A stretch of DNA of 26,741 nt from Ktedonobacterales bacterium (GCA_036000225.1 DASYGC010000353.1:1-26741), one strand, 5' to 3'. Shown: positions 5,481 to 23,879, counted from the first letter of the stretch. Program-made: numbers and translations. The notes: generated by a model not told the origin, from the letters alone.

Positions 5481-5559
5481 CGAATCGCCTCCTCTTTCGC
5501 ACGCCGGACGCATAGCCCTACGCGAGGAGATACGCAGGAGAGTGAGCAGCGAGCGCTGT

Positions 5560-7782
5560 TCACGTCCACGTCAGGCCGAGTGTGGTGTTGAGCTGCACGC
5601 TGAGCTGCCAGGCGCTGCCGGAGCCCTTCGCATCAGCCACGGCACCGGTCGTAAGGTCGGTGGGCTGCTCTCCCGCCGGCCAGACCAGAGTCACCCGCAC
5701 CGGCAGCGTCGCGATGCCGCCCTGCTTCTGGATGGTGAGGGCATAGGCACCGCCGGGGTGGAAGGCAAGTGGCGCGGGCAGGTGATAAGTGAGCGTGACG
5801 GTCACGCTCGTGCCCGGCTGGATGACCAGGTAGCCGCCAAATACCGTCTTGCCGGCGTCGCTGGACTGGCTGATGGAATCGCCATAGCCCGTCGCGCGCA
5901 CGAGCTGGCTGCCCGCTGGGACGTAGACACGTAGATAGTTGCGGTATTCTGGCACCCCGCCGGAAGGCGCACCCGGTGGGGGGTTGGGGTTGTGGTAGGT
6001 GACGGCCAGTGTGGCAACCGGCAACCCAGGTTTGCTGAAATCCACGGTGTAGGCCACCGCGCGCGTCACATACTGGATGCGCTTGTTGTTGCTCATGCTG
6101 GCTTCGTTGAGCATCAGGTAGTCGCCGGCGCCGCTCGCGATAGCGCCGTCCCAGTGTAGGCGCTGAATCAGCGATTCCTCGATGGGCTGATTGAGATAGA
6201 CGAAGGCATCGGCGGAGCCGAACACCCCCTGCACCATCTGCCCCAGCGGCATGAGTTGCGCGTGCGGCAGTTGCAGCAGGCGATCCACCGTGGAATGCAC
6301 GACCTTGACCAGGAAATCTTTGTCGACGAAGTCGTGGCCTTGTGACTGCTCTACTTGCACGAGATTGCCGTAATCGAAGGCAAAGAGGGTCTGTTCGAAG
6401 TTCTGGCTGGTGACGGTCTGGCTATAGCCAGGGACCTGGATCGGGCCAGTCAAGTTGAGGAAGCCACGGAAGAGTGAGAGTCCCACCACGATCACGCCAT
6501 CAATGTGGACGCCGGGGTCATAGACGCCCTGGAAGCGCTCCATCTGCCGCGCCTGCGTGGGAAAGTCGGGATACCAGGAGTCCTGCATCATCCAGTGCGT
6601 CTGGGGGCCAAAGCCGCCCTGATCGGCGAAATAGTGGTAGAGCGGCGCCGGGAATGGCACACCGGGATCGGGGGTCCCGCCGTAGACCCAGCGCTGGAAC
6701 GAGCGGTAGTCGAGATGCGTGATCGCGCCGTTCTGGACCGTCACGACTCCCCAACTGCCAAAGAAGCCACCAGTTGGCCGCAGGTCGTCGGAGTCCATCG
6801 CTACCAGCAGATAGTTGCGGGTGCCGTGCGCGCCCAGCAGCGCGGGGAGTACATCGAGCGCCGCGACGCCCTGCTGCAACTCGGGCAGCCGGGTGGCGAG
6901 CGAGCTCAACAGATGGGCGACACGCCCGCCCAGCATCTGGGGCGGCACGCGCCCCAGCTCGCTCGCCGCGCGCGCGAAGTCCGCCTGCGCCGCCTGAAAT
7001 TGTGGGCGCCCGGTGTCGAGCGCGGCCAGAAATGCCGCGCCCACTTGCGTCTTCGCGCTGGACGCGCTGGTGCCCGCGGCGGCCTGCCCCGCCACCAGCA
7101 CCGCCAGGGGGCGCACTCCCGCCAGCGCCGCCTCCCCGCCCAGCACCACCTGGTGCGCGAGATCGAGCAGTACCGGCAGTGCGGTCGCGTCGCTGGCCGC
7201 GGAGACATTCGCCGCCAGGGGGAGTGTCCAGGCGAGCATCGCCTCTTGCGCGCGCGCTGCCCCCAGCGCGGTGTCGGCCCGGCTCAAATGCGCGCTGGCG
7301 CTATCCAGCGCGGCGACATCCAGCTTGCCAGTTGTCAGGGTCTTGAGAGCCGCTTCGCTCGCCGTAATCTCCGTCTGCGCGGTTTGCAACTGGTGGTAGA
7401 GGTGTACGCCGGCAACGGCCATACGCACCCCCACCGTCACCGGCAAGAGCAGCAGCGCCAGCAGGATCAGCACCACCGCGACCCGCGCCGACAACCAGCG
7501 TTTCGCCCGACGCCGGGGCGCACCAGCGATGCGCGGCGCTGGCGATGCCGTGGGCAACAACAAGTGGCCGGCCTGCATGGAGCCGCGCCGGAGCGTGCCA
7601 GCTCGGGGCGCGGGGGACGCGGGCAGGGCACGCGGGCGCCGCGTGGCCAGCGGGCGCGATGACCATGCGGCTCGCGCACGCAGGCGCCGCAGGCGCACCG
7701 AGAACTGGCGTCGCTGGGCTGGCGCGTCCTCGCGTCCGAACTCAAGTGGTGTGGGCCGGGGAACCGTCAATTTCCGCAGCAT
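5560..7782 (-). CDS. DUF4012-domain membrane-anchored protein (polysaccharide-locus associated)
   Basis: Basic N-terminus, one TM segment (VAVVLILLALLLLPVTVGV), a helical/coiled-coil stalk, then RNYLLVAMDSDDLRPTGGFFGSWG, PDFPTQA, IDGVI and a C-terminal beta domain (YRNYLRVYVP, Y.LTIQKQGG). Confidence 0.75.
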   Translation of the reverse strand: MLRKLTVPRPTPLEFGREDAPAQRRQFSVRLRRLRARAAWSSRPLATRRPRALPASPAPRAGTLRRGSMQAGHLLLPTASPAPRIAGAPRRRAKRWLSARVAVVLILLALLLLPVTVGVRMAVAGVHLYHQLQTAQTEITASEAALKTLTTGKLDVAALDSASAHLSRADTALGAARAQEAMLAWTLPLAANVSAASDATALPVLLDLAHQVVLGGEAALAGVRPLAVLVAGQAAAGTSASSAKTQVGAAFLAALDTGRPQFQAAQADFARAASELGRVPPQMLGGRVAHLLSSLATRLPELQQGVAALDVLPALLGAHGTRNYLLVAMDSDDLRPTGGFFGSWGVVTVQNGAITHLDYRSFQRWVYGGTPDPGVPFPAPLYHYFADQGGFGPQTHWMMQDSWYPDFPTQARQMERFQGVYDPGVHIDGVIVVGLSLFRGFLNLTGPIQVPGYSQTVTSQNFEQTLFAFDYGNLVQVEQSQGHDFVDKDFLVKVVHSTVDRLLQLPHAQLMPLGQMVQGVFGSADAFVYLNQPIEESLIQRLHWDGAIASGAGDYLMLNEASMSNNKRIQYVTRAVAYTVDFSKPGLPVATLAVTYHNPNPPPGAPSGGVPEYRNYLRVYVPAGSQLVRATGYGDSISQSSDAGKTVFGGYLVIQPGTSVTVTLTYHLPAPLAFHPGGAYALTIQKQGGIATLPVRVTLVWPAGEQPTDLTTGAVADAKGSGSAWQLSVQLNTTLGLTWT

Positions 7783-7906
7783 GAGAGGAGTCCTTTATGC
7801 CGCTGGCGCGCGAGCGGCGTATAGAATCAATCGGCAGCGCGCTCGTTGGCGCGACAAGCTGGAACCTCACCGTGACAGCGCCGTGGGAAGATCCGGTTGA
7901 GCGCGG

Positions 7907-8749
7907 CTAGCGTGCTGGCGTGCGTCGGGACACCGCGAAGCTGCGTGCCCACCAGCGCGGTAGACCACCACGCTGCGCTGACGCCGCCGCGCTGGCGAGT
8001 TCGCGCGCGGTGAAGGGCACCGGTGAACGTGTCACGATCGGCTGATCGTCCAGCAGGGCCCGCGGTACCGTTTCGACCAACTCGCGCACGCGGCGCGCGC
8101 CCACCAGCCGCTCAGCCGCCACCAGACTCTCCGCCCAGCGTGGCGGCCGCACGCTCAGCGCGTGAGCATCCGATGCCAGTACATGCGCCAGATCGTGGCG
8201 CAGCAGCAATGCGCTGGCGCGTTGCGCGCGTTCGCCAAAGGCGCCCAGCAGGCTCGATGCGGTGATCTGCACCAGCGCGCCGCTCTCCACCAGGGGGACC
8301 AGCAACTCGGGCGCGCGCTGGATGGCGCGCTCGCGTTCGGCATGGGCGATCACGGGAATGATCCCGCGCTGGCGCACCCGGGCGAGGATCACCGGGAGCG
8401 TGACGGGCACACCGCTGCCTGGCAGCTCCAGCAGGAGATACCGCCCACCATTGAGGGTGGCCAGCTCCTGGCGCGCGAGCGCCTCGTCCAGATCGGCATC
8501 CAACGCCACCTCGTGGCCTGGCCAGACTCGCAGGGGCACGCCCGCCCGCTCCAGAGCCTGGCACAACCGCGCCACTCGGTCGCGCACGTGCGCCGGGGAG
8601 AGGCGCGGGTAGACCGCGTTATAGTGGGGGGTTGCCACGACATCGGTCACCCCCGCCTCAACCTCGACACGCGCAAGCGCGACGGCTGCCGCAAGGGTAT
8701 CACAGCCGTCGTCGACACCGGGAAGGATGTGGGTGTGTACGTCGATCAT
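7907..8749 (-). CDS. PHP-family Mn-dependent protein tyrosine phosphatase (CpsB/YwqE type)
   Basis: MIDVHTHILPGVDDG, ATPHY, PGHEV, YLLLEL, IAHAER and ASDAH metal-binding motifs. Confidence 0.93.
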   Translation of the reverse strand: MIDVHTHILPGVDDGCDTLAAAVALARVEVEAGVTDVVATPHYNAVYPRLSPAHVRDRVARLCQALERAGVPLRVWPGHEVALDADLDEALARQELATLNGGRYLLLELPGSGVPVTLPVILARVRQRGIIPVIAHAERERAIQRAPELLVPLVESGALVQITASSLLGAFGERAQRASALLLRHDLAHVLASDAHALSVRPPRWAESLVAAERLVGARRVRELVETVPRALLDDQPIVTRSPVPFTARELASAAASAQRGGLPRWWARSFAVSRRTPAR

Positions 8750-9423
8750 CGGAAGAGTCGCCTACTCTGTATCCTGAATTGGAGGGTCAGACACCGGGAA
8801 TTGGGCACACATCGCGTGTCCATCGCTCCCTGGTGGCCATGCTCTCTCCGGCATCGGGGTACGCCCTCGGGGGCTTATGGGTGTTCAACCCGCTCGCATG
8901 TGATAACGCCAGATGCGCCCGAACGGCCACACGATGAGACCTATGCGTGAGACGCCGCGGCCCCACGCCGGTACGTGACAATTGCCCGGTGCCGCCGTGG
9001 TACTACTCGTGACTCCTGGGTAAGCTGCCACGTCCAAATGGGCAAGTGGATCACCTCTCCCCTCACCACTCGCGCCAGACACGCCCGTTTGGCCGCATCA
9101 CGATAGCTACTCCAGGATAAGCGCGGCGGACGAACTCCGGCAGCGTGCCCAACAACCTGAGCTGGACCTCCAGCCAGGCGCACGCCAGATGGACCGGAGT
9201 AAGTAGCCAATCGCCACGCCGCCAGGTGTCCGGGCCAACCTTACGCGCCCCCCCTGGCACAGAGCGATGCGGCAGCGCGATACGTCGCATTCACCGCGGC
9301 TCGATCGCTACATCTCGCATGACCGCGGTCACGAGGGCTAGCTGAGCGCACCGTTCCGTGCGTGGATGCGTCCGGCGGCCCAACGTGAGAAGACGCGAGA
9401 CGGAATAGGAAAGGACCAGCGAC

Positions 9424-10089
9424 ATGAGCAATGTGGCCTTGCGCGTCGTGTCCCGCGAGCCGCAACTCCTGGCGGCGGAGCCGGGCCGATGCTATCACAT
9501 CGCCAAGCGCGCGCTGGATATCGTGGGCGCCCTGATGGGGCTGGCGCTGCTCGCGCTGCTACTGCTGCCGTTTGCCCTGCTCATCAAGCGCGAAGATGGT
9601 GGGCCAGTGTGGTATCGGCGCGAGGCGATCGGGCTGGATCGCCAACGCTTCTATGTCCTCAAACTGCGCACCATGCGCCCCGACGCCGATACCTACTTCG
9701 CGCTTCATCCCGAGCTGCAGCGCGAGTTCCTGATCCATTTCAAACTGCGCGATGATCCGCGGGTCACCCGCATCGGGCGCTTCTTGCGGACCAGCAGCCT
9801 GGATGAACTACCGCAAATGCTCAATGTGCTGCGCGGCGAGATGAGCCTGGTTGGCCCGCGCTATGTCCGACCAGAAGAGTTGGCGCGCTACGGTCTGTTT
9901 GCCGTCGAGCGCGTGCGCATGCGTCCAGGTATCACGGGCCTGTGGCAGACCCGTGGGCGCAACGACATTCCCTACACCATGCGCGTCATCTACGATCGCA
10001 CCTACTACTATACCCGTTCGGTGAGCGGCGACATAGGCATCTTACTGGCGACCATTCCGGCTGTGCTGCGGCGACGCGGAGCCTATTAG
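9424..10089 (+). CDS. Priming phosphoglycosyltransferase / bacterial sugar transferase (small PglC/CpsE type)
   Basis: KRALDI, DGGPV, KLRTM, DDPRVTRIGRFLRTSSLDELPQMLNVLRGEMSLVGPR and RPGITGLWQ. An AAGGA RBS is present. Confidence 0.95.
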   Translation: MSNVALRVVSREPQLLAAEPGRCYHIAKRALDIVGALMGLALLALLLLPFALLIKREDGGPVWYRREAIGLDRQRFYVLKLRTMRPDADTYFALHPELQREFLIHFKLRDDPRVTRIGRFLRTSSLDELPQMLNVLRGEMSLVGPRYVRPEELARYGLFAVERVRMRPGITGLWQTRGRNDIPYTMRVIYDRTYYYTRSVSGDIGILLATIPAVLRRRGAY

Positions 10090-10115
10090 CACCAGACTCG
10101 CGAGGGAGAAAGCAG

Positions 10116-11156
10116 ATGATGTGGAACAAGCGCGTGGAGGGGAAGGCTTCCCCACTCCGTGTTCTGTATGTGACCAGCGCGCCTGATACACCCTACATGC
10201 AAGGCTGGTTACGCGCGCTCGCCACCACGCTGGCGGACGCGGGACATGCGCTGCTGGCCGCCTGCCCGGATGGCAGTCTGAGTGGTGATGCCCTGGCGGA
10301 GGACATGACGGGGCAACCCGCCTATGTGTACGCCACCATTGGGCGCTGGGACGACGTGGGCGGGTGGCTGCATTGGATGACGCTGGTGCGTCGTTACCGT
10401 CCCGACAGCGTGCACCTCGCGCCCGATCTGGATCTGGGCACCGCGACCCGTCTGGCGCTGGCCACTCGCCTCATGCGACCGGTCACGCTGGCGGCTGAAG
10501 CCAGGCAGGCCGCCGTACAACCCCGCGCGCCTCAGCGGGAGAGCGGACCCCAGGGTCAGTGGGTAGATAGCCACCGACCGCTAACGTGTGGCGCGGCGCG
10601 GCCTGATGGTCTGTCTGCCCAGGCGCATGCACGCGAGGGAGCGCATAGCTGGAAGCGTAGGACACATGCGCTGTGCGCATGGCTGTTCTATCGCGTCCTC
10701 GTCACGCAGATCCTCTGCGCTGATGTGCAGACGGCACGGGAGCTCATTCGGACGTACCGCGTCGCTCCCGCGCGCATCAGTCTGCTGTACAGCGGCGGAG
10801 CGGAGGCGCCACATCGGTCGCCTGGTCGCTCGGCCGCCGCGGCGCACACGGGCCAGCGTGCGTGGCGGGCGCCGATCACCGCACCGCAACGTGCCCGCCG
10901 CCTGGTCGCGCTCTTTGAGGTGTTGCGCACTCGTGATCTACCGCAGCCACAACCACAACCACAACTACAGCCAATTACCGCGCCCGAGCGCGCCATACGC
11001 CCCGCGACGAGCCCGCACCCGCGCATCGCATCGCCCCGGCTGGCCGCAGTCGCGGGGCAGGAGATCGAAGCCGCTGCGCCCGCTGGTCGTGCGCTGGTGT
11101 TGGGTGGATCGCGCGCGACCCTCGCAATGATGATCCGGCGTACCGACGCCCGGTGA
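10116..11156 (+). CDS. GT-B (GT4-like) protein retaining only the N-terminal domain; non-catalytic or degenerate
   Basis: LRVLYVT..., RRYRPDSVHL and QILCADVQTARELIRTYRVAPARISLLYSG resemble the GT4 N-domain. No C-terminal nucleotide-sugar domain (no E-x7-E) is present. A GAGGGAG RBS precedes ATG 10116. Confidence 0.55.
   Translation: MMWNKRVEGKASPLRVLYVTSAPDTPYMQGWLRALATTLADAGHALLAACPDGSLSGDALAEDMTGQPAYVYATIGRWDDVGGWLHWMTLVRRYRPDSVHLAPDLDLGTATRLALATRLMRPVTLAAEARQAAVQPRAPQRESGPQGQWVDSHRPLTCGAARPDGLSAQAHAREGAHSWKRRTHALCAWLFYRVLVTQILCADVQTARELIRTYRVAPARISLLYSGGAEAPHRSPGRSAAAAHTGQRAWRAPITAPQRARRLVALFEVLRTRDLPQPQPQPQLQPITAPERAIRPATSPHPRIASPRLAAVAGQEIEAAAPAGRALVLGGSRATLAMMIRRTDAR
10944..10973 (+). 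repeat. Hexanucleotide tandem repeat (CA[AG]C[CT]A) x5 encoding QPQPQPQLQP
   Basis: cagcca caacca caacca caacta cagcca. Confidence 0.8.
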
Positions 11157-11169
11157 AGGAGAACCGTCC

Positions 11170-12435
11170 ATGGAATCCAATCGCCAACGCCCGCGTGTCC
11201 TCCTGCTGTCCCAGTTGGTGGTCTATCCGGCGGACAATGGGCCGCGCGCCAAGACATTGCAAGTGCTCCGGCGTCTGTGCGCGCGCTATGACGTCACCTT
11301 CTGCGCCTTCGCGCGCGACGACCAGGAGGCGCGCAACGCGGATGCCCTGCGCGGCATTTGCCACCGTGTGGAGACCGTGCCACTGCGGCGCACGTTGCCT
11401 GGCGAGGCGCGCTTTCTGATCGAGAGTCTGATCACCGGCGATTCGTACGTGCTGCATCGCGACGAACGCCCGGCGATGCGCGAGATGGTTCGCCGCCTGC
11501 TCGATGAGGAACAGATCGACGTGCTGCACGTCGATCAACTCAACATGATGCGCTACGTCCCGCGCGACTGGCCGGGCACGGTCATCCTGGACGAGCACAA
11601 CGCCGTGTGGCAGGTGGTGGATCGCCTGCGGCAGGGGACCCGCGACCCGCTGCGCCGCTGGATGCTGGGACGTGAGGTGCGTTTGATGCGCCAGATCGAA
11701 GGGGCGGCTTGCGAATGGGCCAGCCTGGTGCTGACGGTGAGCGAGCCAGATCGCGCGGCGCTCGCCGCGGTGGCGGGGGCCACGAGCGCGCCGGTGGCGC
11801 TGGTGCCCATCGCCGTAGACGCCGCCGCGTGCGCGCTGGTGCGCGCCAAACGGCGTCCAGAGGCCGCGCGCCTGCTCACGATCGCGACGCTCTACTGGCC
11901 CCCCAACAGCGAGGGCATCGCCTGGTGGCTGCGCGAAGGGTTCGCCAGCTTAGCGGCGCGCTGCCCCGAGGTGGTCTACGACATTGCCGGTGCGCGCCCA
12001 CCACGCGCGCTGCGCGCGGAGGTCGCGCGCCACCCTGGCGCGCGCCTGCATGGCTATGTGGCGGATGCGGCGCCGTATTGGATGGCGGCCACCGCGCTGG
12101 TGGTGCCGCTGCTCTCGGGTGGTGGGGTGCGGGTGAAGATTCTGGAGGCGATGGCCATGGGCGTGCCTGTGATTTCAACGTCGGTCGGCTGCGAGGGGCT
12201 GGCGGTGCGCGACGGCGAGCACCTGCTGGTGGCCGATACGCCTGAAGCCATCGCGGCGGCCGGCGCCCGGCTGATCGGCGATCCCGCGCTGGCGCAACGC
12301 CTGGCGCGGCGGGCCTATCAACTGGTGTGCGAGCACTATGATGTGCCAATCGCGCTCGCGGCGCTGGATGCCGCTTACGCGAGCGTGCTGGCCAGCCGAG
12401 GTGAGGAGGCGAACGCATGCGCATTGCCTTTGTAA
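11170..12435 (+). CDS. Glycosyltransferase family 4
   Basis: LVVPLLSGGGVRVKILEAMAMGVPVISTSVGCEGL donor-binding motif and N-terminal PADNG...KT motif. An AAGGAG RBS is present. Confidence 0.92.
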   Translation: MESNRQRPRVLLLSQLVVYPADNGPRAKTLQVLRRLCARYDVTFCAFARDDQEARNADALRGICHRVETVPLRRTLPGEARFLIESLITGDSYVLHRDERPAMREMVRRLLDEEQIDVLHVDQLNMMRYVPRDWPGTVILDEHNAVWQVVDRLRQGTRDPLRRWMLGREVRLMRQIEGAACEWASLVLTVSEPDRAALAAVAGATSAPVALVPIAVDAAACALVRAKRRPEAARLLTIATLYWPPNSEGIAWWLREGFASLAARCPEVVYDIAGARPPRALRAEVARHPGARLHGYVADAAPYWMAATALVVPLLSGGGVRVKILEAMAMGVPVISTSVGCEGLAVRDGEHLLVADTPEAIAAAGARLIGDPALAQRLARRAYQLVCEHYDVPIALAALDAAYASVLASRGEEANACALPL

Positions 12436-13667
12436 CCGCCTATCCGCCCTCGCTGGTGCGGGTGCGCGCGTACGCCTTTGTGCGCGAGCTGGCCCGCGAA
12501 CACGAGGTGACCGTGGTCTGTGCCTGCCATACAGCCCGCGAGCAGGCGGATGTGGCGGCGCTGCGCGCGCAAGGGGTGCGGGTCGTCGCGGTGCGCACGC
12601 CAGGCTGGAGCGCAGCGGCCCACGCGACCGGCGCGCTGTTGCTGGGTGAATCGCTGCAGGTGGCCCATGGCGCCGCGACGGCGTTGCGGCGCGCGGTAGG
12701 GGATCTGGTTGCCACGGGCGCGATTGACGTGGTGCATGCCGAGCATCTGCGCACCATTGCCAGCGTGCGCGATCTCCCCGTGCCCGTGGTGTGGGATGCG
12801 GTGGACTGCATCAGCCAGTTGTATGAGCTAGGCGCGCGCCACGGTGCCACACCAATGATGCGTCTGATCGGCCGACTGGAGGCCCAGCGCGCGCGGCGCG
12901 AAGAGCAATTGCTGCTGCACTCATTGCGCCATGTGCTCGTCACCACCGGACGCGACCGCCGGGCGCTGCGCCGGGTATGGGAGGAGACGCGCTCGCCCGA
13001 ACTGCGCCGGAGCGATATCGCTCCCTGGCGCGCGGCGGCGGTGCATGTGGTACGCAACGGAGTAGACCTGAAGTACTTTATACCGGGCCAGTGGACCCGC
13101 CAGGCCAATCTGCTCGTCTTGAGTGGCAAGATGAGTTTCCACGCCAATGTCGCGGCGGCTGAACTCCTCGCTCACGAGATTATGCCGCGCATCTGGGAGC
13201 GACGACCCGACGTTCGGCTGCTCATCGCCGGCAGCGACCCCCCCCGCGCGGTGCAGGCGCTGGGTGCCGATCCCCGAATTGCCGTCACGGGCTATCTGTC
13301 CGACCTGCGGCCCGCCCTCGCGGGCGCTGCCATTGCCGTCAGCCCGACACCGTATGCCGTCGGCGTACAGAACAAGGTGCTCGAAGCGCTGGCCCTGGGC
13401 ACACCAGTGGTTGCCATGCCCGCCGCGGTCGGCGGTCTGAGCGCCATCGCCGGACGTGATCTACTGGTGGCCGGCACCGCCCACTCCTTTGCCCGCACCG
13501 TGGTCGAACTGCTGGATGATGCCTATCAGCGCGCCGCACTGGCACACGCCGGCCGCCAGTACGTCGAACGCTATCACAGCTGGTCCGGCGCCGGGCGGCA
13601 ATTGGCCCAGGTCTACGCGCTGGCCATCGCCGCCTGCCAGCATGGGCGGCTCGACGCTGCCGGTTGA
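12417..13667 (+). CDS. Glycosyltransferase family 4
   Basis: VRNGVDL, SGKMSFHANV and GVQNKVLEALALGTPVVA. A GAGGAGG RBS is present, and the gene overlaps the previous one by 19 bp. Confidence 0.92.
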   Translation: MRIAFVTAYPPSLVRVRAYAFVRELAREHEVTVVCACHTAREQADVAALRAQGVRVVAVRTPGWSAAAHATGALLLGESLQVAHGAATALRRAVGDLVATGAIDVVHAEHLRTIASVRDLPVPVVWDAVDCISQLYELGARHGATPMMRLIGRLEAQRARREEQLLLHSLRHVLVTTGRDRRALRRVWEETRSPELRRSDIAPWRAAAVHVVRNGVDLKYFIPGQWTRQANLLVLSGKMSFHANVAAAELLAHEIMPRIWERRPDVRLLIAGSDPPRAVQALGADPRIAVTGYLSDLRPALAGAAIAVSPTPYAVGVQNKVLEALALGTPVVAMPAAVGGLSAIAGRDLLVAGTAHSFARTVVELLDDAYQRAALAHAGRQYVERYHSWSGAGRQLAQVYALAIAACQHGRLDAAG

Positions 13668-13682
13668 TACCGAGTCCTTTCT

Positions 13683-13743
13683 GCCCGCGCGGGCGGGCAT
13701 CACAGCCATGCGGTCAGCCATGCGGTCGCAGCGACCCGGTCGC
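13683..13743. repeat. Intergenic palindromes plus 12-bp tandem duplication
   Basis: gcccgcgcgggc is a perfect palindrome (13683-13694), cagccatgcggt occurs twice (13703-13726), and gcgacc-c-ggtcgc spans 13731-13743. Confidence 0.7.
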
Positions 13744-13802
13744 AACCGCCCACACCGAGCGGGTCTGGAAGCCAGAACCCACGGATTGAGAGGAACCTCG
13801 CT

Positions 13803-15854: not shown

Positions 15855-15940
15855 TGATGAACCATCGCGCCAGGCGCGCCGCGGAAGCGGAGAGGCGCCC
15901 GGCGCACGCGGAATGATACGCGACAGCATTGGAGGACGGT

Positions 15941-18900
15941 GTGGCAACGAGCCCATCGGCGACGGGGACCATGCCCCCCAGCCAGCGGACCGGACCAGAT
16001 ACCCGCGGCGCCCGGCGCGCCACGCTGGTGCAGATGGCCGCGTACCTCATCACCATCCCGATCTCGATCCCCGCCAATATCCTGCTGGCACGCTATCTTG
16101 GCCCCGCGCAATTCGGCGATTATACCTGGGCGATGCTGGTGCTCTCGTTCTTCGCGCTGTTCTCGACCATGGGCACCGAGCAGATCATCGTGCGTGACCT
16201 GAGCACCAGCGAGCGCTCGGCCTGGCCGGCGGTGATGACCACGGCGATTGGGCTGCGGCTGGTCACCTCCACAGTGGCCCTGGCGCTGTGCTGGGGGGTG
16301 ACCTTGCTGCTGCCGATCTCGGCCAACCAGCGCCTGCTGGTGCTGGCGGCCAGTGGCACCCTGCTGTTCAGCTTCCAGTTTTCGAGCAGCCTGAAGACGA
16401 CCTTTGATCTGGGCTTCCGCTCCGAGCAGCACATGCTCACACCCGCCGCGTTGCTGGCCATCGATCGGGTGGTGACGGCGCTGCTGATCGGCGTTGGCGT
16501 GTGGCTCAAGCTCCCGTTGTTCTGGCTGGCGTTGTTCATCGTTTACTCCGACGTGCCGTTCTTCGTGCTGCTGGCGCTGGCCAGCTGGCGCGCGCATGGC
16601 TGGCGTATCCGGCTTCCCCACTGGCGCGAGTTCGCGCAATTGCGGATCAGCCTGCCGCTGATGCTGGACAATACCCTGAGTTTCATCCATCACCGGGCCG
16701 ACATCTTTCTGCTTGCCGCCATCTCGGGACCCTTCAGTGTCGGCATCTACGCCGCCGCGCAGCGGGTGCTGGATCCGCTGGGCTCGGCGATCAACATGTT
16801 CTGTACCTCTTTCTATCCCGCGCTGGCTTCAGCGCGCGAGCAATCGCCCACCTCCTTCGCCCGCACGCTGACCACCGGGTTGAGCTATGTGCTACTGGCG
16901 CTGGCGCCACTCGCGGTTGTGCTTACCTTGCGCGACCGCGAGGTGGTGGCGCTGCTCTATGGCGCGAAATACGCCGGATCGGCGTTGCCACTGGCCCTGC
17001 TGATGTGGGCGCTGGTCGCGGTCGCGGTCATGGAGGTGGTCTACTCCGCCTGCCTGGCGGCACGCATGGAGCGCTTTGTTCCCTGGGTATCGGGGCTGGC
17101 GATGGTTGGCAACCTCAGCCTGAACGCGCTGCTGCTGCCGCACTGGGGCGCAACGGGGGCGGCCTGGTCCACGCTGGGCAGCGAATCGCTGCAGGGGCTG
17201 GTGCTCGGGGTCGCCCTGGCACGACGCGAGCGCACACTGCCCTACCTGCGCCCTCTGGCACGCATTGTCATCTGTCAGGTGCTCCTGGCGGCCATCCTGC
17301 TGGTGGGCCAGCGCGTGCCGCTGCTCATGCTGTTGCCGCTGGCCACGGTGGGCTATCTGCTCGCGGCCAATGCCACCGGAGCGTTACCGCTGCGGCCCGC
17401 GCTGGTTCAGACGCACGCCACCCTGATCGAGTTGCGCCAGCGCCTGGCGCGAACCGGCCACGGCGGCGCGTGGGCGAGCGGACCGGCCTTGAACGGATTG
17501 GCCACACTGGCCGCGAGTGGCGCGTGGGGCGTGGGAGTGCTGGACGCCCTTCCCAGTCGCCTATTCGCCGTCAGCTGGCAAGCGCGCTTCCACCGCTGGC
17601 TCGTTGCGGCCCAGGGGTCGTGGCCATCGCTGGGCCATGCGTTCACCTCCACCACGACACAGGTGGCGCCGGCCTACGCGTACGCCTCAGGCAACGCGAG
17701 TGTGCCGGGGCGTCTCACGACCTTCGAACTCGCGCTGGTGCATGCGGCCGCCGGGCCCCGCGGTCGCCTGCCACGGTGGCCAGGCCTGCCCGGCTGGGCC
17801 ACCACACTCGCGCTGGGCGCCCTCTGCCTCAGTTCCAGCGTGGCTATCAGTCTGAATCCGAAGCTGGCCGGCGCGGCGCTGATCGCCCTGGTGCTGCTGG
17901 CGCTGACCTGGCAGTTTCCCATGGAAGCGCTGATCGGCATGGCGCTGGTGCTCCCATTTTACGACTTCATGCTCCAGGTGCTGCGGCTGAAGCTTGGACT
18001 GAGCGGTACGGAGTTGCTCGCGGCGCAATCGCTCAAGGAAGTGGTGTTGGTGGTCGCCATCGTCGCCACACTGCTGCGAAACGTCCGCACCCGCACGGCC
18101 AGTGGGCGCTGGAGCCTGAGCGGTGTGCTGGTGCTGGGCATCGTGGCACTCACCATCGCGTGGATGCCGCTGGCCTATTCCACGACGATCGCGCTCTATG
18201 GCGCGCGCTCGATGCTCGAACCGTTTGTCTTCTGGCTGGCGGTCTATCTGGCCCGCCCCGACGCGCGACGCATCCAGCAAATGGTCTCCGGGCTGATCGT
18301 CGTCGCCACCATCAGTTCGCTGTTCGCGATCTTCCAGCACTTCTTCTGGAAGAGCTTCTACCTGGCCTACGACTACAATGGCGCGACCACCTGGGCCGGT
18401 GGTAATTTCTACGCGGTGGGGTTGAATGTCGATCGCTCATCAGCCTTTATGGCCTTGCCGCAGGAGTTCGGCGCCTATCTGATGCTGGCCATCGCGCTCA
18501 CCGTGAGCTGGCTTGTCGCGACGCGCCGCGCGCGACTGTTCGTGCCACTGATCATCATGGTCGGCGGACTGCTTGTCACCTTCCAGCGCAGTTCGTGGAT
18601 CGGCACCGTCGTCGCGCTGCTGGTGTTCCTCTGGCTCGCCATTCAGACGCGACGCTGGCGCCATCCCCTGCTGGTAGTGGGTCTGGTGGGCGCGGTGCTG
18701 GCCGTGGTTGCCGTGATCGTCGTGGCGCGTATTGACGTGGCCCAGATGCTCTCCGCCACGCTGACCCTGAACGATCCGAGCGCCCACGCGCATTACACCG
18801 AACTGTTCAACGATGGGCCGCGGCTGATCGGCGCCAATCCCTTTGGCCTGGGCACGGGTATGAGCGGTGTACGCACCGAGTCGTTCACCGCCAACCTCGG

Positions 18901-19216
18901 CCAGTTCTACAACGAAACCTTTTACTGGACGGTGGCGGCGCAGTGGGGCATCCCTGGGCTGCTGCTGGTGGTGGCGTTCCTGGTGGCCCTGGTCGCGCGC
19001 GCACAGGGCCTGGCGCTCGATCCGCGCGCGGGCGAGCTGACGCGGCGCCTGGGCGCGGCGGTCGCCGCGACCACCACGGGCATGTTGGTCGCCTCGGTCA
19101 CTTTCAACCAGTGGCAACTGCCCACGTTCGCCTACACCTTCGGGCTGGTCTGTGGCCTGCTGAGCGCCTCAGCCGCCCACAGAGGTGCATCCCAGACACA
19201 GATTGGCAGGTCGTGA
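15941..19216 (+). CDS. Fusion of a Wzx/RfbX-type flippase (N-terminal) and an O-antigen-ligase/Wzy-type polymerase (C-terminal)
   Basis: Flippase motifs LARYLGPAQFGDY, VGIYAAAQR and LNALLLPHWGATGAAWSTLGSE. After a ~130-aa linker come Wzy_C-like motifs TFQRSSWIG, NPFGLGTG and YWTVAAQWGIPG. There is no in-frame stop. GGAGG lies 5 nt before GTG 15941 (the ORF track starts at TTG 15929). Confidence 0.85.
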   Translation: MATSPSATGTMPPSQRTGPDTRGARRATLVQMAAYLITIPISIPANILLARYLGPAQFGDYTWAMLVLSFFALFSTMGTEQIIVRDLSTSERSAWPAVMTTAIGLRLVTSTVALALCWGVTLLLPISANQRLLVLAASGTLLFSFQFSSSLKTTFDLGFRSEQHMLTPAALLAIDRVVTALLIGVGVWLKLPLFWLALFIVYSDVPFFVLLALASWRAHGWRIRLPHWREFAQLRISLPLMLDNTLSFIHHRADIFLLAAISGPFSVGIYAAAQRVLDPLGSAINMFCTSFYPALASAREQSPTSFARTLTTGLSYVLLALAPLAVVLTLRDREVVALLYGAKYAGSALPLALLMWALVAVAVMEVVYSACLAARMERFVPWVSGLAMVGNLSLNALLLPHWGATGAAWSTLGSESLQGLVLGVALARRERTLPYLRPLARIVICQVLLAAILLVGQRVPLLMLLPLATVGYLLAANATGALPLRPALVQTHATLIELRQRLARTGHGGAWASGPALNGLATLAASGAWGVGVLDALPSRLFAVSWQARFHRWLVAAQGSWPSLGHAFTSTTTQVAPAYAYASGNASVPGRLTTFELALVHAAAGPRGRLPRWPGLPGWATTLALGALCLSSSVAISLNPKLAGAALIALVLLALTWQFPMEALIGMALVLPFYDFMLQVLRLKLGLSGTELLAAQSLKEVVLVVAIVATLLRNVRTRTASGRWSLSGVLVLGIVALTIAWMPLAYSTTIALYGARSMLEPFVFWLAVYLARPDARRIQQMVSGLIVVATISSLFAIFQHFFWKSFYLAYDYNGATTWAGGNFYAVGLNVDRSSAFMALPQEFGAYLMLAIALTVSWLVATRRARLFVPLIIMVGGLLVTFQRSSWIGTVVALLVFLWLAIQTRRWRHPLLVVGLVGAVLAVVAVIVVARIDVAQMLSATLTLNDPSAHAHYTELFNDGPRLIGANPFGLGTGMSGVRTESFTANLGQFYNETFYWTVAAQWGIPGLLLVVAFLVALVARAQGLALDPRAGELTRRLGAAVAATTTGMLVASVTFNQWQLPTFAYTFGLVCGLLSASAAHRGASQTQIGRS

Positions 19217-19220
19217 GTTG

Positions 19221-20438
19221 ATGTCGCAGGTGCGGATGCCGCATATCGTGTATGTGTGTGCCGCTCCGGTCTACGGCGGCGCGGAAGAATATCTCATCGG
19301 CCTGGCGGAGAACGTCAGGCGGGCAGACTGGCGCGTCAGTGCGCTGCTGCCCCAGCGCCCCGGCTTCGCGGGCGCCGTCGCGCGGCTGGAGGCCGCGGGG
19401 GTGGGTGTCGCCACTGGACCGATCAAGACCAGCGAGGACTATCCCTGGCCTACCCTGCTGCACCTGGCCGATGTGCCACAACGCGCCTGGCTGGAGCGCA
19501 CCCTGCGCGCCTATGCGCCCGATGTGGTGCACATCAACCAGCCTAACACCGAGGGTGGACAGTTGGTGCTGGCGGCGGCCGCCCGCCTCGCGGGGGTACC
19601 CGTCGTCACCACCGTCCACGCCTATGATAGCATCGGCGCACTCGGCTACCGTCTGGGCAGGCTGCGCGATGCCATCGTCGACTGGCACTACCGCCGCGTG
19701 CGGGCGATCAGCGTACCGGCGCCTACCGCCGCCCGGGTGTTGCAGCAGGCGTATCGCCACACGCGTGGCAAAGCCAGCGTGGTCGGGCCAGCGATCGATG
19801 CGGCGCGTTTCGCGCCCGCACGCGCCGCGGTGGGCGCCGCTGCCTGGCGGGCCCGTCTGGCGCCGGATGGCGCCACCCGGCTGGTGGGCGTCGTTGGCCG
19901 GCTCTCGCCCGAGAAAGGGCAGGTCGCGCTGGTGCGCGCCTGGCCACGGATCGTCGCCGCGGCGCCGGGCGCGCGGCTGGTGCTGGCGGGTGAGGGCCCC
20001 GCGCGTGGCGCCATCGAGGCGCTCTGCCAGGCAGCGGGCATCAGCGACAGCGTCGTGCTGCTCGGGGGAGTGGCGCACGACGACGTGCCCGCACTGCTGG
20101 GCGCGTTGGATGTCGTCGTGCTGCCCTCGCGCTATGAGTGCCTGCCGCTGGCGATTCTGGAAGCGATGGCGGTGGGTCGTCCCGTCGTGGCCTACGCGAT
20201 CAACGCGATCCCGGACGCCATCGCGCATGAGGAATCGGGCCTGCTGGTGACCCCCGGCGACGATGTCGCGCTGGCGGCTGCCATCCTGCGCATCCTGCGC
20301 GACCCCGCGCTGGCGCGATGCCTGGGTCAGTGCGCGCGCCAGGTGATCGAGACGCGCTTTACTGCCGCGGTTCAGACGCACCAGATTCTTGACCTGTATC
20401 AGCGCGTCCTGTGCGCGCCGGAAGGAACGCACCAATGA
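19221..20438 (+). CDS. Glycosyltransferase family 4
   Basis: GGAEEY, VGVVGRLSPEKG and VVLPSRYECLPLAILEAMAVGRPVVA (E-x7-E). Confidence 0.93.
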   Translation: MSQVRMPHIVYVCAAPVYGGAEEYLIGLAENVRRADWRVSALLPQRPGFAGAVARLEAAGVGVATGPIKTSEDYPWPTLLHLADVPQRAWLERTLRAYAPDVVHINQPNTEGGQLVLAAAARLAGVPVVTTVHAYDSIGALGYRLGRLRDAIVDWHYRRVRAISVPAPTAARVLQQAYRHTRGKASVVGPAIDAARFAPARAAVGAAAWRARLAPDGATRLVGVVGRLSPEKGQVALVRAWPRIVAAAPGARLVLAGEGPARGAIEALCQAAGISDSVVLLGGVAHDDVPALLGALDVVVLPSRYECLPLAILEAMAVGRPVVAYAINAIPDAIAHEESGLLVTPGDDVALAAAILRILRDPALARCLGQCARQVIETRFTAAVQTHQILDLYQRVLCAPEGTHQ

Positions 20439-21331
20439 TCTCTCCAGAAGCCGCTACGACGGCTTCGACCCAACGCACCAACAGAAAGCCGGCGATGGCA
20501 TCCGCGCCCCCCCGCGCCACTCCCTGGCTCCCCATCCTGGGCTACCATCGCGTCGTCGAGACGATGCCACCAGATGACGCCTGCTGGCTGTGTGTGCCGC
20601 GGCACGAGTTCGAGCGCCAGCTTGCCTGGTTTGCGCGGTTGGGGTATCGCACGATCTCGCTTGATACGGTCGGCGAACTGCTCGCGCGAAACCAGCCGAT
20701 CCCCCCACGCCGCTTCGCGATCACCTTCGACGATGGCTATCTGGATAATCTCAGCGTGGCGGCGCCGGTGCTGAGTTGGTTCGGCTTCAGTGCCACGGTA
20801 TACATGGTGGCCGCGCGCATTGGCGGTACGAACATCTGGGATCCCCACGCCAGCTGCGCCGCGCCGCTGATGGACTGGCAACACCTGCGGGCCTGGCGGG
20901 CGCTGGGGCATGCCGTTGGGTCACACACGCTCACGCATCCGCACCTGAGCACCTTGCGGCCTGACGCCGCGCGCCGCGAGTTGGTGGACTCGCGCCGCAC
21001 GCTGGAGGACGGCCTGGGCGAGGCGGTGCCTACGTTCTGTTATCCCTACGGCGACTGGTCGGCGACCACCGTCGCGCTGGCCGAGGAAGCCGGCTATACG
21101 CTTGCCTGCAACGATGTGGCCCGTCGCGAACATGGACGCTACACCATGGCACGCACTGATCCGCGCTGTTGGCCCGCCGCCCTGACGCTAGTAAGCGGCC
21201 AGCCATGGTTCGCCGTACTCAACCAGCATGGCCTGCTGCGTCTGCCACGCTGGGGTCTGCACCAACTGTGGCAGTACCGGATCGTCGCCACGCCGCGGCG
21301 CGCGGCACATGGAAGCGAGAACCTACGATGA
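20435..21331 (+). CDS. Polysaccharide deacetylase (NodB/CE4 family)
   Basis: ILGYHRV, TFDDGY (motif 1), GSHTLTHPHL (metal His pair) and FCYPYG. ATGA overlap with the upstream GT gene. Confidence 0.92.
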   Translation: MISPEAATTASTQRTNRKPAMASAPPRATPWLPILGYHRVVETMPPDDACWLCVPRHEFERQLAWFARLGYRTISLDTVGELLARNQPIPPRRFAITFDDGYLDNLSVAAPVLSWFGFSATVYMVAARIGGTNIWDPHASCAAPLMDWQHLRAWRALGHAVGSHTLTHPHLSTLRPDAARRELVDSRRTLEDGLGEAVPTFCYPYGDWSATTVALAEEAGYTLACNDVARREHGRYTMARTDPRCWPAALTLVSGQPWFAVLNQHGLLRLPRWGLHQLWQYRIVATPRRAAHGSENLR

Positions 21332-22932
21332 ACGCTCAGTCGCTCGCCGGCGTAGCGGTCTTTGCCGCCGATACCCACCCCGGGCTCGCGTTGCGCATCC
21401 CGCATAGCGTGCGCGTGCGCGATCGCCAGCCATGCGGGCGCACCGGCGCGCTCGATGCGCTGGTGCTCGACGCCCAATTGCGCCAGTCGCTGGTTTGCGT
21501 TCGGGAGCTGGGCCGCGCGGGTCAGCGCGTAGGTGCGCTGGAGTGCGACGTTGAGGCGGCGGCCTTCGCCTCGCGCTGGTGCGCGGTGAGCGCGGTGGTG
21601 CCCGGGTTCACACAGGAGCCAGCGGTCTATCGCAATGCCCTTCTGTCGGTGCTCGATCGCTACCCCGCGCGGGTGGTGATCCCCGCGCACGATGGAAGCA
21701 TCGAGGTTTTGCGCGCCTACCGCGCGACCCTGGAGCGCCAGACGGCGCTGGCCCTGGGCAGCGAGGCGGCGCTGAGCATCGCCGTGGACAAAGCCGCCAC
21801 GCTGGCCATCGCCGAGCGCCTGGGAATCGCCGTGCCACGCGGGGTCGCGGTGGACACGCCCGAGGACGTGGAGGCGGCCCTGGCCGAGACGGGGCTGCCA
21901 GCCGTGGTGAAGCCACGCGCCTCCTGGGTGGAGCGCGCTGGCGTGGCCACGCGCCTCGTCAGCGAGGCGGTGATGAGCGTGGACGAGGCGCGTCGGGCGG
22001 TGGAGACCATTGTGCGCGCAGGCGGCAACGCGCTGATCCAGCAATGGCTGCCAGGCCGGCGGGAGGCCATCAGCGTCTTCTCCGCGCGCGGGCGCATATG
22101 GGCGAGCTTCGCGCAGGTGGCCCACCGGATGGTGCCCGTGCTGGGCGGCTCCTCCGTGCTGCGCGAGAGCATCGCGCTGCCCGCCGACTCCACCAGCGCG
22201 GCACAGCGGCTGGTGCGCGCCATCGAACTGGAAGGCTACGCCGAGGTGGAGTTCCGGCGCGATCGAGATGGCCGTCCGGTGCTCATGGAGATCAATCCGC
22301 GCCTGTCGGCGTCGGTCGAAATCGCCGTGCGCGCGGGAGTCAACTTCCCGCGGCTGCTCTTTGCCTGGGCGGCCGGCGAGCCATTGTGGAGTGTTTCCGC
22401 CTACCGCACCGGGCGGCGCATGCGCTGGCTGGGCGGCGATTACTATCACCTCAAAGAGACGCTCGCCCACCAGGGCCGGCCCGACGTGCCACCCGCAGGC
22501 CGCGCCATCGGTACCTTCCTGCTGGACTTCTTGCGCCCGGCAGCTTACGATTACCTCGATGCGCGCGATCCGCTTCCGGCGCTGGTGGCCACGGGCCAGA
22601 TGCTGGGCCACCTGGCGCGCCGGGTCCTGTCCCCTCCTACAGCCCCTCTCCACGCCGGGGAGGGAGAGCGAGCAGAGGACGTACATCCGTACGCCCCTAC
22701 GGATGGGCGCGCGGGGGAGCCAGCGGACGTAACTGCCACGTCAGGTGGACCAGGTGGGCAGCCAGCTGGCGTACTGGCCGATGCTCGGATAGATGCGCGA
22801 GCGGGCACGAGCGTGTCTAGCGAGCCGGAGACAGAGGGTGTGGTCACCGTGCGTGGATCCGGGAGAGCGGGGCAGCATCTGGATAGGCCCACGGATAGCT
22901 ATCCCGCCCGTGTAGCATTGGAGCGACCTTGA
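21328..22932 (+). CDS. ATP-grasp ligase (carboxylate-amine ligase type) with ~100-aa low-complexity C-terminal extension
   Basis: VDKAAT, PAVVKP, LIQQWLPG and EVEFRRD...LMEINPR ATP-grasp motifs. ATGA overlap with the deacetylase stop. Confidence 0.88.
   Translation: MNAQSLAGVAVFAADTHPGLALRIPHSVRVRDRQPCGRTGALDALVLDAQLRQSLVCVRELGRAGQRVGALECDVEAAAFASRWCAVSAVVPGFTQEPAVYRNALLSVLDRYPARVVIPAHDGSIEVLRAYRATLERQTALALGSEAALSIAVDKAATLAIAERLGIAVPRGVAVDTPEDVEAALAETGLPAVVKPRASWVERAGVATRLVSEAVMSVDEARRAVETIVRAGGNALIQQWLPGRREAISVFSARGRIWASFAQVAHRMVPVLGGSSVLRESIALPADSTSAAQRLVRAIELEGYAEVEFRRDRDGRPVLMEINPRLSASVEIAVRAGVNFPRLLFAWAAGEPLWSVSAYRTGRRMRWLGGDYYHLKETLAHQGRPDVPPAGRAIGTFLLDFLRPAAYDYLDARDPLPALVATGQMLGHLARRVLSPPTAPLHAGEGERAEDVHPYAPTDGRAGEPADVTATSGGPGGQPAGVLADARIDARAGTSVSSEPETEGVVTVRGSGRAGQHLDRPTDSYPARVALERP
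22673..22700 (-). repeat. GTAG-type REP-like hairpin, copy 1 (inside the ATP-grasp coding tail)
   Basis: The minus strand reads GTAG-GGGCGTAC-GGAT-GTACGTCC-TCTG, matching the copy at 24960-24987 at 26/28. Confidence 0.7.
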
Positions 22933-23879
22933 TGAACGTCGCCGATTCCCAGTTGCCGCTGTCCTCACCGACAGATCAGCCAGCGATCCGCGCGCGGCTC
23001 GGTCGCGCGCTCGCCGGCGTGCTGCTGTCCACCGCCGCTGCCGCTGGCCCGCTGATCCGTCGCGGGTCGTCCGACCGACTGGGACACCATGCCCGGCTGA
23101 TGACCGGACCACAGGGACCGTATGTCGCCAAGCGCGCTACGACACCAGAGGAACGTAAAGGGGTGTGGATGGAAGTGCGCATGCTGCCCGCGGTGCGTCG
23201 CTATGCCGGCGCCGAGGTCATCGTCCCCCGCCTGCTTCATGTGACTGAGGCATCCGACGAGCTAGAGATCGATCTCGAATGGCTCGCTGGCTACCATAGC
23301 CGGGTGTCGCTGGCACGCTGTGCGCGCGGGGTGGATTGGCTGGCCCATCTGCCACTGGCGGCTTTTGCCGATCTGCCCGAACTCGACGCCGCGACGCTGC
23401 TGGACCAGGCGGAACTGGACCTGTTCACACTGAGCGGCGACCCCCTGTGGCGGCAGCGCGGTCCCCTACCAGAAGATCTGCTCGATCGCCTGCGCCAGCA
23501 TGCCTTCGCGCTGGCCGCCTTCCCTACGGTGGTCGTGCACAATGACTATCGCCCCGGCAACGTGCTCGTGCGTGGCGAGGCCATCGCGCTGATTGATTGG
23601 GCCGCGCCCGCGCGCGGCTGCATGCTGCTGGACTGGCTGCACCTGGGGATCACGCACATCGAATGGCTGCCCGCCATCTGGCGAGAACTCGAACGCCGCG
23701 TGGCTGACGATCCCGCGCGGGCCGCCGCGCTGCCGCATGCGGGGTGGTTCTGCGCTGTGGTCGCCGCCTGCCACACCGCGGCCCATGCCATGCAGCGACC
23801 ACGTGGTCTCACACTCGCGCCGCGGGGTGCTGTGCTGCGCCTGCTACTGGCACGGGAGCCGAGACTGGCACAGGGGTGA
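22932..23879 (+). CDS. Aminoglycoside-phosphotransferase/choline-kinase-like phosphotransferase
   Basis: YVAKR (ATP-binding Lys), HNDYRPGNVLV (Brenner motif) and ALIDW. TGATG overlap with the ATP-grasp stop; TTG 22929 is an alternative start. Confidence 0.8.
   Translation: MNVADSQLPLSSPTDQPAIRARLGRALAGVLLSTAAAAGPLIRRGSSDRLGHHARLMTGPQGPYVAKRATTPEERKGVWMEVRMLPAVRRYAGAEVIVPRLLHVTEASDELEIDLEWLAGYHSRVSLARCARGVDWLAHLPLAAFADLPELDAATLLDQAELDLFTLSGDPLWRQRGPLPEDLLDRLRQHAFALAAFPTVVVHNDYRPGNVLVRGEAIALIDWAAPARGCMLLDWLHLGITHIEWLPAIWRELERRVADDPARAAALPHAGWFCAVVAACHTAAHAMQRPRGLTLAPRGAVLRLLLAREPRLAQG

Follow-up and report, generated by a model that had tools for sequence, protein, structure and literature searches.

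A probable Wzx/Wzy-dependent polysaccharide locus in a monoderm soil Chloroflexota bacterium, with an order-swapped flippase-polymerase fusion and an uncharacterised tailoring pair

The stretch of DNA analyzed here (the window) is a 26,741-nucleotide contig from Ktedonobacterales bacterium (GCA_036000225.1 DASYGC010000353.1:1-26741), with a G+C content of ~68%. It is a whole contig of a metagenome-assembled genome (MAG) of 4.59 Mb in 914 contigs that is 77% complete. Gene calls from Pfam and NCBIfam scans of the window place a surface polysaccharide locus of twelve genes, all intact, at positions 5560-23879, arranged in two divergent operons, each co-oriented (Table 1). The features of interest are a Wzx-Wzy fusion with swapped order and a Wzy half of separate origin, a module of priming transferase (PGT), CE4 deacetylase and ATP-grasp ligase accompanied by a kinase, and a DUF4012 protein whose core resembles the LCP fold. 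The original prediction of a complete, monoderm-type Wzx/Wzy-dependent system with neither Wza nor nucleotide-sugar synthesis genes is supported, as all twelve genes were located intact, outer-membrane markers are lacking, and the scans found neither class of gene within the window. The G+C content at third codon positions (GC3) is 0.72-0.86 across the locus genes and coding is supported for all of them, most weakly for the truncated glycosyltransferase (half-GT). Overlaps of ATGA, ATGA and TGATG join the last four genes (GT4c, CE4, ATP-grasp and APH). Neither the divergent intergenic region nor the window as a whole returned an Rfam match, the intergenic region has no consensus sigma-70 site, and a promoter and terminator scan gave nothing above chance.

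Table 1. Features of the polysaccharide locus and its flank, in window coordinates.
Feature	Position	Strand	Evidence
GNAT acetyltransferase	4953..5513	-	Pfam Acetyltransf_1, E 4e-10; GC3 0.84
DUF4012 membrane protein	5560..7782	-	Pfam PF13196, 77 bits
CpsB/CapC-type PHP phosphotyrosine phosphatase	7907..8749	-	Pfam PF19567, 165 bits, full length
Divergent intergenic region, 675 bp, presumed promoters	8750..9423	.	no family-matching open reading frame (ORF)
Priming transferase (Bac_transf), 221 aa	9424..10089	+	Bac_transf, 183 bits
Truncated GT4-like protein (half-GT)	10116..11156	+	sub-threshold Glyco_transf_4 match, N-domain only
GT4 glycosyltransferase a	11170..12435	+	Glyco_trans_1_4 + Glyco_transf_4
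GT4 glycosyltransferase b	12417..13667	+	Glyco_trans_1_4
Fused co-polymerase/tyrosine autokinase, 683 aa	13803..15854	+	Wzz, GNVR, ParA-like P-loop; TIGR01007 173 bits
Wzx-Wzy fusion, 1081 aa	15971..19216	+	Polysacc_synt + Wzy_C in single ORF
Fusion part: Wzx	~15971-17365	+	
Fusion part: basic linker	~17366-17803	+	
Fusion part: Wzy_C	~17804-19216	+	
GT4 glycosyltransferase c	19221..20438	+	Glycos_transf_1, 132 bits
CE4 polysaccharide deacetylase	20435..21331	+	Polysacc_deac_1 (PF01522), 87 bits
ATP-grasp ligase	21328..22932	+	ATPgrasp_Ter, CPSase_L_D2, ATP-grasp_3
APH-family small-molecule/sugar kinase	22932..23879	+	APH (PF01636), 41.7 bits vs cut-off 23.2

The host was placed by RpoB identity, as an Atlas look-up of RNase PH was uninformative for taxonomy. 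Because its conserved RpoB core is 75-78% identical to those of Ktedonosporobacter, Tengunoibacter and a related Chloroflexota MAG and 65% identical to that of an Acidimicrobiia MAG, sequence identity places the host in Chloroflexota, near or within Ktedonobacteria. Gene content supports a monoderm-type host, since Omp85/BamA was found in none of 41 genomes from the order (completeness is at least 90% in 14 of these) and Wza (Poly_export, PF02563) has no match in the host's own 77%-complete genome. The same genome holds six Wzy_C genes, four copies of DUF4012 and a UDP-sugar dehydrogenase gene outside the locus, the last indicating that precursors can come from outside it.

In the fusion protein, the Wzx half matches Polysacc_synt and Polysacc_synt_3 at residues 31-351, and the Wzy half matches Wzy_C (PF04932) with 37.4 bits against a cut-off of 31.7. 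A hydropathy scan gave 12 segments in the Wzx half and 13 in the Wzy half, which also has a 74-aa acidic loop. The 146-aa linker contains 11 K/R against 3 D/E and, being basic, is predicted by the positive-inside rule to be cytoplasmic; the order of 12 segments and then a basic linker is compatible with the fusion. When 1.84 billion representatives were searched exhaustively with HMMER, the Wzx half proved closest, at 28-36% identity, to proteins of 1000-1170 aa with Wzy_C first and Wzx second, and the window protein is the sole one with Wzx before Wzy_C among the 150 best matches; another long protein among these is a Wzx-GT4 fusion. Of 22 Chloroflexota loci in a genome scan, 20 carry the Wzy-then-Wzx fusion, among them that of the cultured Tengunoibacter tsumagoiensis Uno3. 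The Wzy half has few homologues and is unlike its counterpart in the Ktedonobacteria fusions (E 0.09); it resembles instead a stand-alone Wzy (30% identity, E 3e-36) from a sulfotransferase-rich Wzx/GT polysaccharide cluster. In a tree of the Wzx domain (56 rows, quick IQ-TREE), the window sequence is sister to the whole reverse-order clade with an SH-aLRT of 100. Plain membership in the Ktedonobacteria fusion family was rejected on the basis of the opposite order and the unrelated Wzy half. The sequences point to one of two histories, in which either two lineages fused independently or the window lineage re-fused with a different Wzy. A literature search on Wzx-Wzy fusions found no relevant paper.

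The fusion is genuine. Other assemblies have yielded the same protein, and contigs of four soil metagenome runs cross the linker without a gap; an assembly or sequencing artifact was rejected on these two grounds, namely recurrence in independent assemblies and the spanned linker. Two contigs with 98.8% (L069) and 99.4% (L070) DNA identity to the window carry the fusion gene without an indel, and its codon changes are 8 synonymous against 2 non-synonymous in the former and 6 against 2 in the latter. The same pattern of more synonymous than non-synonymous changes, with in-frame indels only, extends to the locus, which is therefore not decayed. The between-strain indels comprise 12-bp units in the kinase tail, 9 bp in CE4, and 2+1 bp and 9 bp in ATP-grasp, and at least nine soil metagenome runs contain the locus, with 70-93% of sampled words recovered. 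Contig depth summed over four soil runs was 5-8x higher in two bins. One, at 9789-10277, has many loose ends at 9811-9861, suggesting that sequences of other organisms fall on the conserved catalytic motif of the PGT. The other, at 22503-22991 (the ATP-grasp tail and start of APH), has back-joints at 22668-22721.

The original prediction described the co-polymerase/kinase as a diderm-style fused Wzc beside a Firmicute-style PHP phosphatase. Its Wzz and GNVR domains, together with an N-terminal half that matches the CpsC family (TIGR01006), are those of a co-polymerase, and the TIGR01007 match lies well above the cut-off of 108 bits for a tyrosine autokinase. The translation contains the Walker A, A' and B motifs and a cluster of three tyrosines, as in bacterial tyrosine kinases (BY-kinases), followed by an atypical repeat-rich tail of ~155 aa. 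The fused state stands, as a single 683-aa ORF carries the CpsC and CpsD parts that are separate in Firmicutes. The diderm label does not: the ectodomain between the two transmembrane segments is ~200 aa, in place of the ~400-aa periplasmic PCP-2a domain of group 1 capsule systems. Because this ectodomain is short and CpsC-like, a diderm-style Wzc was rejected, and by sequence the protein is classed as a CpsC-CpsD-type fusion and not as an E. coli-type Wzc. Actinobacteria are known to have fused (TAD-CD) BY-kinases (PMC4007543), and a fused kinase is present in all related Ktedonobacteria loci. The kinase tail (15354-15854) is polymorphic between strains, always in frame: L069 lacks a 12-bp unit at 15777-15788, and L070 has an extra one after 15610. 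The Firmicute-style phosphatase was confirmed by its full-length PF19567 match, and a His-rich PHP motif can be read at its N-terminus; CpsB is patchy in the order, occurring in 6 of the 41 genomes.

The PGT is small and single-domain and matches the C-terminal catalytic domain of the EPS_sugtrans/WbaP models. Orthologues of GT4a in the related genome G023 and in Ktedonobacteria loci are 56-61% identical, and those of GT4b (44-56%) lie directly upstream of the PGT in the same two settings. One priming enzyme and three intact GT4 enzymes fit the predicted repeat unit of about four sugars, and orthologues of exactly these four cluster in G023. The half-GT is conserved at residues 6-130 alone, with 34-37% identity to ORFs of ~424 aa in G020, G002 and G015 that also follow the PGT and in which the GT4 N-domain is weak too. 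Its second half has an atypical codon-position composition, with high G+C at second codon positions and low GC3. A frameshifted full glycosyltransferase was rejected, as ~216 nt remain after the end of the N-domain against a C-domain of ~170 aa. On sequence grounds the half-GT would be either an accessory protein with no catalytic role or a gene in decay.

The last three genes had been read as a three-enzyme tailoring module. Three genes are indeed present, but they are better described as a widespread CE4 and ATP-grasp pair plus a locus-specific kinase. The CE4 protein contains the motifs TFDD and H-x-x-x-H (H-T-x-x-H). Because it lacks a hydrophobic N-terminus it should be cytoplasmic, where the ATP-dependent ligase and the kinase also work. 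The ATP-grasp enzyme has a low-complexity tail of ~100 aa and distant PDB relatives (PurK, Ddl and cyanophycin synthetase). Its family gave more than 1500 matches, the top 120 at 50-66% identity, and one source names members D-aspartate ligase. Fusion to a Lys/Orn-type FAD monooxygenase (~800 aa) is frequent in the family, and fusion to a GT4 occurs in some members; the fusions hint at N-hydroxylation and acylation on glycans in Actinomycetota and Chloroflexota.

In G023, a single operon holds orthologues of the PGT (63% identity), the CE4 adjoining it (55%), ATP-grasp (64%), GT4a (56%), GT4b (56%) and GT4c (53%), in addition to genes for a stand-alone flavin monooxygenase, a methyltransferase and an epimerase. 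A JGI contig (L073) shows the same arrangement, and CE4, PGT and ATP-grasp also occur together in L074 and L075, with variants that place CE4 beside the PGT or beside an ATP-grasp::monooxygenase fusion. Among the metagenome contigs with module variants, one protein is named Solirubrobacteraceae by NCBI. By this synteny, CE4 and ATP-grasp appear to be a conserved, widespread and uncharacterised pair tied to the priming transferase. In both G023 (L062, C2:415000-434999) and L073, the operon of PGT, CE4, ATP-grasp, monooxygenase and three GT4 genes lies back to back with a Pel-like operon (DUF4118/GAF PelD-like, HEAT/TPR PelE-like, DUF3492-GT4 PelF and PelG), with an Agd3-type CBM87 deacetylase nearby.

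The APH protein has a catalytic loop H-N-D...N of the form H-x-D-x4-N, and its structural neighbors in the Atlas are APH families. With phmmer it gave no PDB match, none of 40 relatives has a homologue of it at E<=1e-5, and the flavin monooxygenase partner was not found in the host's own 77%-complete genome. The kinase appears to be locus-specific, in place of the monooxygenase. A cascade of deacetylation, re-acylation and phosphorylation can reasonably be inferred from the analogy with mycothiol/bacillithiol logic and D-aspartate ligase-type ATP-grasp enzymes. In the mycothiol and bacillithiol pathways, a GT4, a cytoplasmic de-N-acetylase and an ATP-dependent ligase are encoded together, as in the window, although the likeness is one of logic only and the families or subfamilies differ. 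D-aspartate ligase and Campylobacter jejuni Cj1438 are ATP-grasp enzymes that form an amide bond on a glycan or cell-wall precursor, and the substrate in the window would presumably be the lipid-linked repeat unit.

The full-length AlphaFold2 (AF2) model of the DUF4012 protein (pLDDT 75, pTM 0.72) shows a disordered Arg-rich N-terminus, one transmembrane segment, a helical stalk of ~200 aa, an alpha/beta core and a C-terminal beta-sandwich. In a fold search against the PDB, this model gave mixed matches that included two LCP structures. Its best match was 4g2a, Legionella lpg2210 (E 1.9e-6, TM-score 0.42 by target), deposited as a 'putative nutrient binding protein'. With the core alone (aa 296-565; pLDDT 77, pTM 0.75), the best 26 Foldseek PDB matches were exclusively LCP proteins (E 3.5e-5 to 3e-2, probability 0.82-1.0), comprising TagT/U/V, Cps2A, MsrR, LytR, BrpA and structural-genomics LCPs; an LCP profile constructed from relatives verified that the entries are LCP proteins. 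The protein has no PDB match with phmmer and no Pfam LytR_cpsA_psr match, and PF03816 (LCP) matches nothing within the window. The models suggest that the core likely has an LCP-like fold, while membership of the LCP family is unproven. In an alignment of 28 homologues, the charged residues D330, E333, R335, R400, D401, K488, D525 and D554 are invariant or nearly so, a pattern more in keeping with an active site than with a scaffold; R335, R400, D401 and K488 were mapped onto LCP residues by eye only. Like the LCP ligases TagT/U/V, Cps2A and MsrR, DUF4012 would be a membrane-anchored, extracellular protein of a polysaccharide locus, encoded beside CpsB. It differs from them in its lack of sequence homology (Pfam, hhalign), in TM-scores below 0.5, and in the additional stalk and C-terminal beta-sandwich.

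The DUF4012 gene adjoins CpsB here and in G032, and DUF4012 is present in all 41 genomes of the order with 1-8 copies each. The domain is enriched in Gram-positives, Chloroflexi and the candidate phyla radiation (CPR) (PMC6744442), and a priming GT-DUF4012-wzz core is conserved in the exopolysaccharide (EPS) locus of Bifidobacterium longum (PMC5412050). In several relatives canonical LCP genes lie 3-9 kb from DUF4012 genes (G028:C80, G034:C113 and G031:C30), indicating that the two families co-occur and do not replace each other. As a working model, DUF4012 most likely handles the pyrophosphate-lipid-linked polymer outside the membrane, in wall ligation or release.

The original prediction also held this combination of genes to be unusual for the host, and that part was not upheld. 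DUF4012 is in every one of the 41 genomes of the order, fused kinases are usual in Ktedonobacteria loci, and G032, from a different family of the order, has Wzc-GT4-DUF4012-CpsB in a row. A core of GT4b-PGT-Wzc-(Wzy::Wzx)-GT4-(DUF4012) is conserved in ~20 Ktedonobacteria loci, including that of T. tsumagoiensis Uno3. The locus is a rearranged variant of one typical of the lineage, and its reading as an unusual hybrid was overstated. In line with the suggestion that the pathway could be undescribed, the literature search found no characterised equivalent; the cell-wall or spore role also suggested is putative.

Comparison with individual systems places these differences. The uncharacterised T. 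tsumagoiensis Uno3 locus (L043) shares GT4b-PGT-fused Wzc-fusion-GT4-(DUF4012) with the window, at 44-53% identity for GT4b and PGT and ~30-38% for Wzc and Wzx. However, its fusion runs from Wzy to Wzx whereas that of the window runs from Wzx to an unrelated Wzy half, and it has no CpsB, CE4, ATP-grasp or APH within 10 kb. The cps locus of Streptococcus pneumoniae (cpsA-B-C-D-E, GTs, wzy and wzx) shares CpsB, the CpsC- and CpsD-like parts, Bac_transf, GTs, Wzx and Wzy with the window, as well as the absence of Wza and, beside cpsB, a membrane protein whose extracellular core is LCP-like, in the window only likely so. In contrast to it, the window has CpsC fused to CpsD and Wzx to Wzy, a small single-domain priming enzyme, DUF4012 and not a recognisable LCP in the CpsA position, two divergent operons, and a cytoplasmic CE4/ATP-grasp/kinase set. 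The EPS/capsular polysaccharide system of B. longum 105-A (PMC5412050) is likewise monoderm, with Wzx/Wzy polymerisation and a core of priming GT, DUF4012 and wzz/chain-length kinase, but has separate Wzx and Wzy, a large priming enzyme and dTDP-rhamnose genes in the locus, and lacks CE4, ATP-grasp and APH. With the Wza-Wzb-Wzc systems of E. coli group 1 capsule and colanic acid, the window shares a single-polypeptide co-polymerase/kinase with Walker A/A'/B motifs and a tyrosine cluster. Unlike them, it has neither Wza nor a low-molecular-weight protein tyrosine phosphatase Wzb, its ectodomain is ~200 and not ~400 aa, a long repeat tail extends past the tyrosine cluster, and the host lacks outer-membrane markers.

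In our view the locus probably directs the Wzx/Wzy-dependent synthesis of a heteropolysaccharide in a monoderm soil Chloroflexota bacterium, by the logic of the streptococcal cpsABCDE loci. From the gene content, intactness, domain families, conservation and synteny of the locus, its fusion and the fold resemblance, we infer the chemical steps, the tailoring order and the activity of DUF4012 as follows. The small priming transferase would place a sugar-1-phosphate on polyprenyl phosphate, and the three GT4 enzymes would lengthen it to the repeat unit of about four sugars. At the cytoplasmic face, CE4 would strip an N-acetyl group and the ATP-grasp enzyme would re-acylate the amine with a carboxylic or amino acid, while the APH-type kinase may add a phosphate or supply a phosphorylated precursor. 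The Wzx-Wzy protein would then flip the lipid-linked unit and polymerise it directly outside. Tyrosine phosphorylation, cycled by the CpsC-CpsD-type kinase and the CpsB phosphatase, would control polymerisation. Finally, DUF4012, at the streptococcal cpsA position, would most likely handle the polyprenyl-pyrophosphate-linked polymer outside, by wall ligation or release.

Three other explanations were weighed against this pathway. In the doubtful case that the ATP-grasp enzyme amidates the carboxylate of a uronic acid, CE4 would act separately and the APH protein would be an anomeric sugar or small-molecule kinase for precursor supply. The ATP-grasp domain of C. jejuni Cj1438 amidates a uronic-acid carboxylate and the APH family includes anomeric HexNAc kinases. 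The distance of the ATP-grasp enzyme from its PDB relatives, the UDP-sugar dehydrogenase in the genome and the lack of an APH orthologue accompanying the module elsewhere are in keeping with this alternative. However, CE4 and ATP-grasp lie adjacent or near to each other and close to the priming transferase in unrelated lineages, which argues for coupled action, and the family members named D-aspartate ligase imply acylation of an amine. It is unlikely that the Wzy_C half is a WaaL/PglL-type ligase or O-oligosaccharyltransferase that transfers short glycans to protein or lipid, for example an S-layer or wall protein. PF04932 spans ligases and polymerases, the match is modest (37 bits), and the genome has six Wzy_C genes. 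Against this, the co-polymerase/tyrosine kinase and phosphatase in the same locus are hallmarks of polymerising capsule and EPS systems, and the closest stand-alone Wzy relative comes from a polysaccharide cluster with Wzx, GT and sulfotransferase genes. That the locus is a silent or decaying remnant is very improbable: one glycosyltransferase is truncated and the usual monooxygenase partner was not found, but all other ORFs are intact with catalytic motifs, and the mostly synonymous strain differences, in-frame indels and recurrence in soil metagenomes speak against decay.

Several observations nevertheless count against the proposed Wzx/Wzy-dependent pathway or its parts. Besides the modest score of Wzy_C, a family that covers ligases too, and the possibility that the ATP-grasp enzyme amidates a uronic acid instead, the half-GT looks degenerate, and the monooxygenase missing from the 77%-complete genome implies that the tailoring branch may be altered or incomplete. 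For DUF4012, the alignments with LCP structures span ~250 of 270 columns at TM-scores of just 0.28-0.42 and rmsd of 6-15 A, hhalign against the LCP profile gave a probability of 1-3% and hence no support, and a canonical LCP gene is present elsewhere in the host's own genome, a single one on another contig (C465).

A more far-reaching combination of the three features can be advanced only tentatively, as jointly they are possible rather than probable. DUF4012 might be a highly divergent LCP branch, not recognised before, which in the Wzy-dependent systems of Chloroflexota, Actinomycetota and CPR would either ligate the polymer to the wall or act as its release factor. Wzx and Wzy might be so tightly coupled that sister lineages came to carry both in one chain, in opposite orders and with unrelated Wzy halves. 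The PGT-CE4-ATP-grasp module might build a new N-acylated amino sugar, here also phosphorylated, at the lipid-linked stage. The field has long asked whether Wzx and Wzy act as one physical unit, and the window fusion and the reverse-order Ktedonobacteria fusions are natural single-chain constructs that make their coupling testable. DUF4012 occurs across monoderm EPS loci, those of probiotic bifidobacteria among them, and the fold result provides its first testable function. The module suggests that soil Actinomycetota and Chloroflexota commonly make an undescribed glycan modification. Chloroflexota are an abundant soil phylum whose surface polysaccharides are, to our knowledge, chemically uncharacterised.

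Outside the twelve genes, a 509-aa ORF at 2645-4174 on the minus strand has a GC3 of 0.85 and an N-terminal hydrophobic anchor, with no Pfam or NCBIfam match; a 613-aa ORF overlapping it on the opposite strand is probably spurious. The GNAT acetyltransferase gene lies 46 bp downstream of the DUF4012 gene on the same strand and may be the last gene of the minus-strand operon, although its membership is uncertain. Its product may cap the amine introduced at the ATP-grasp step, or be unrelated to the pathway.

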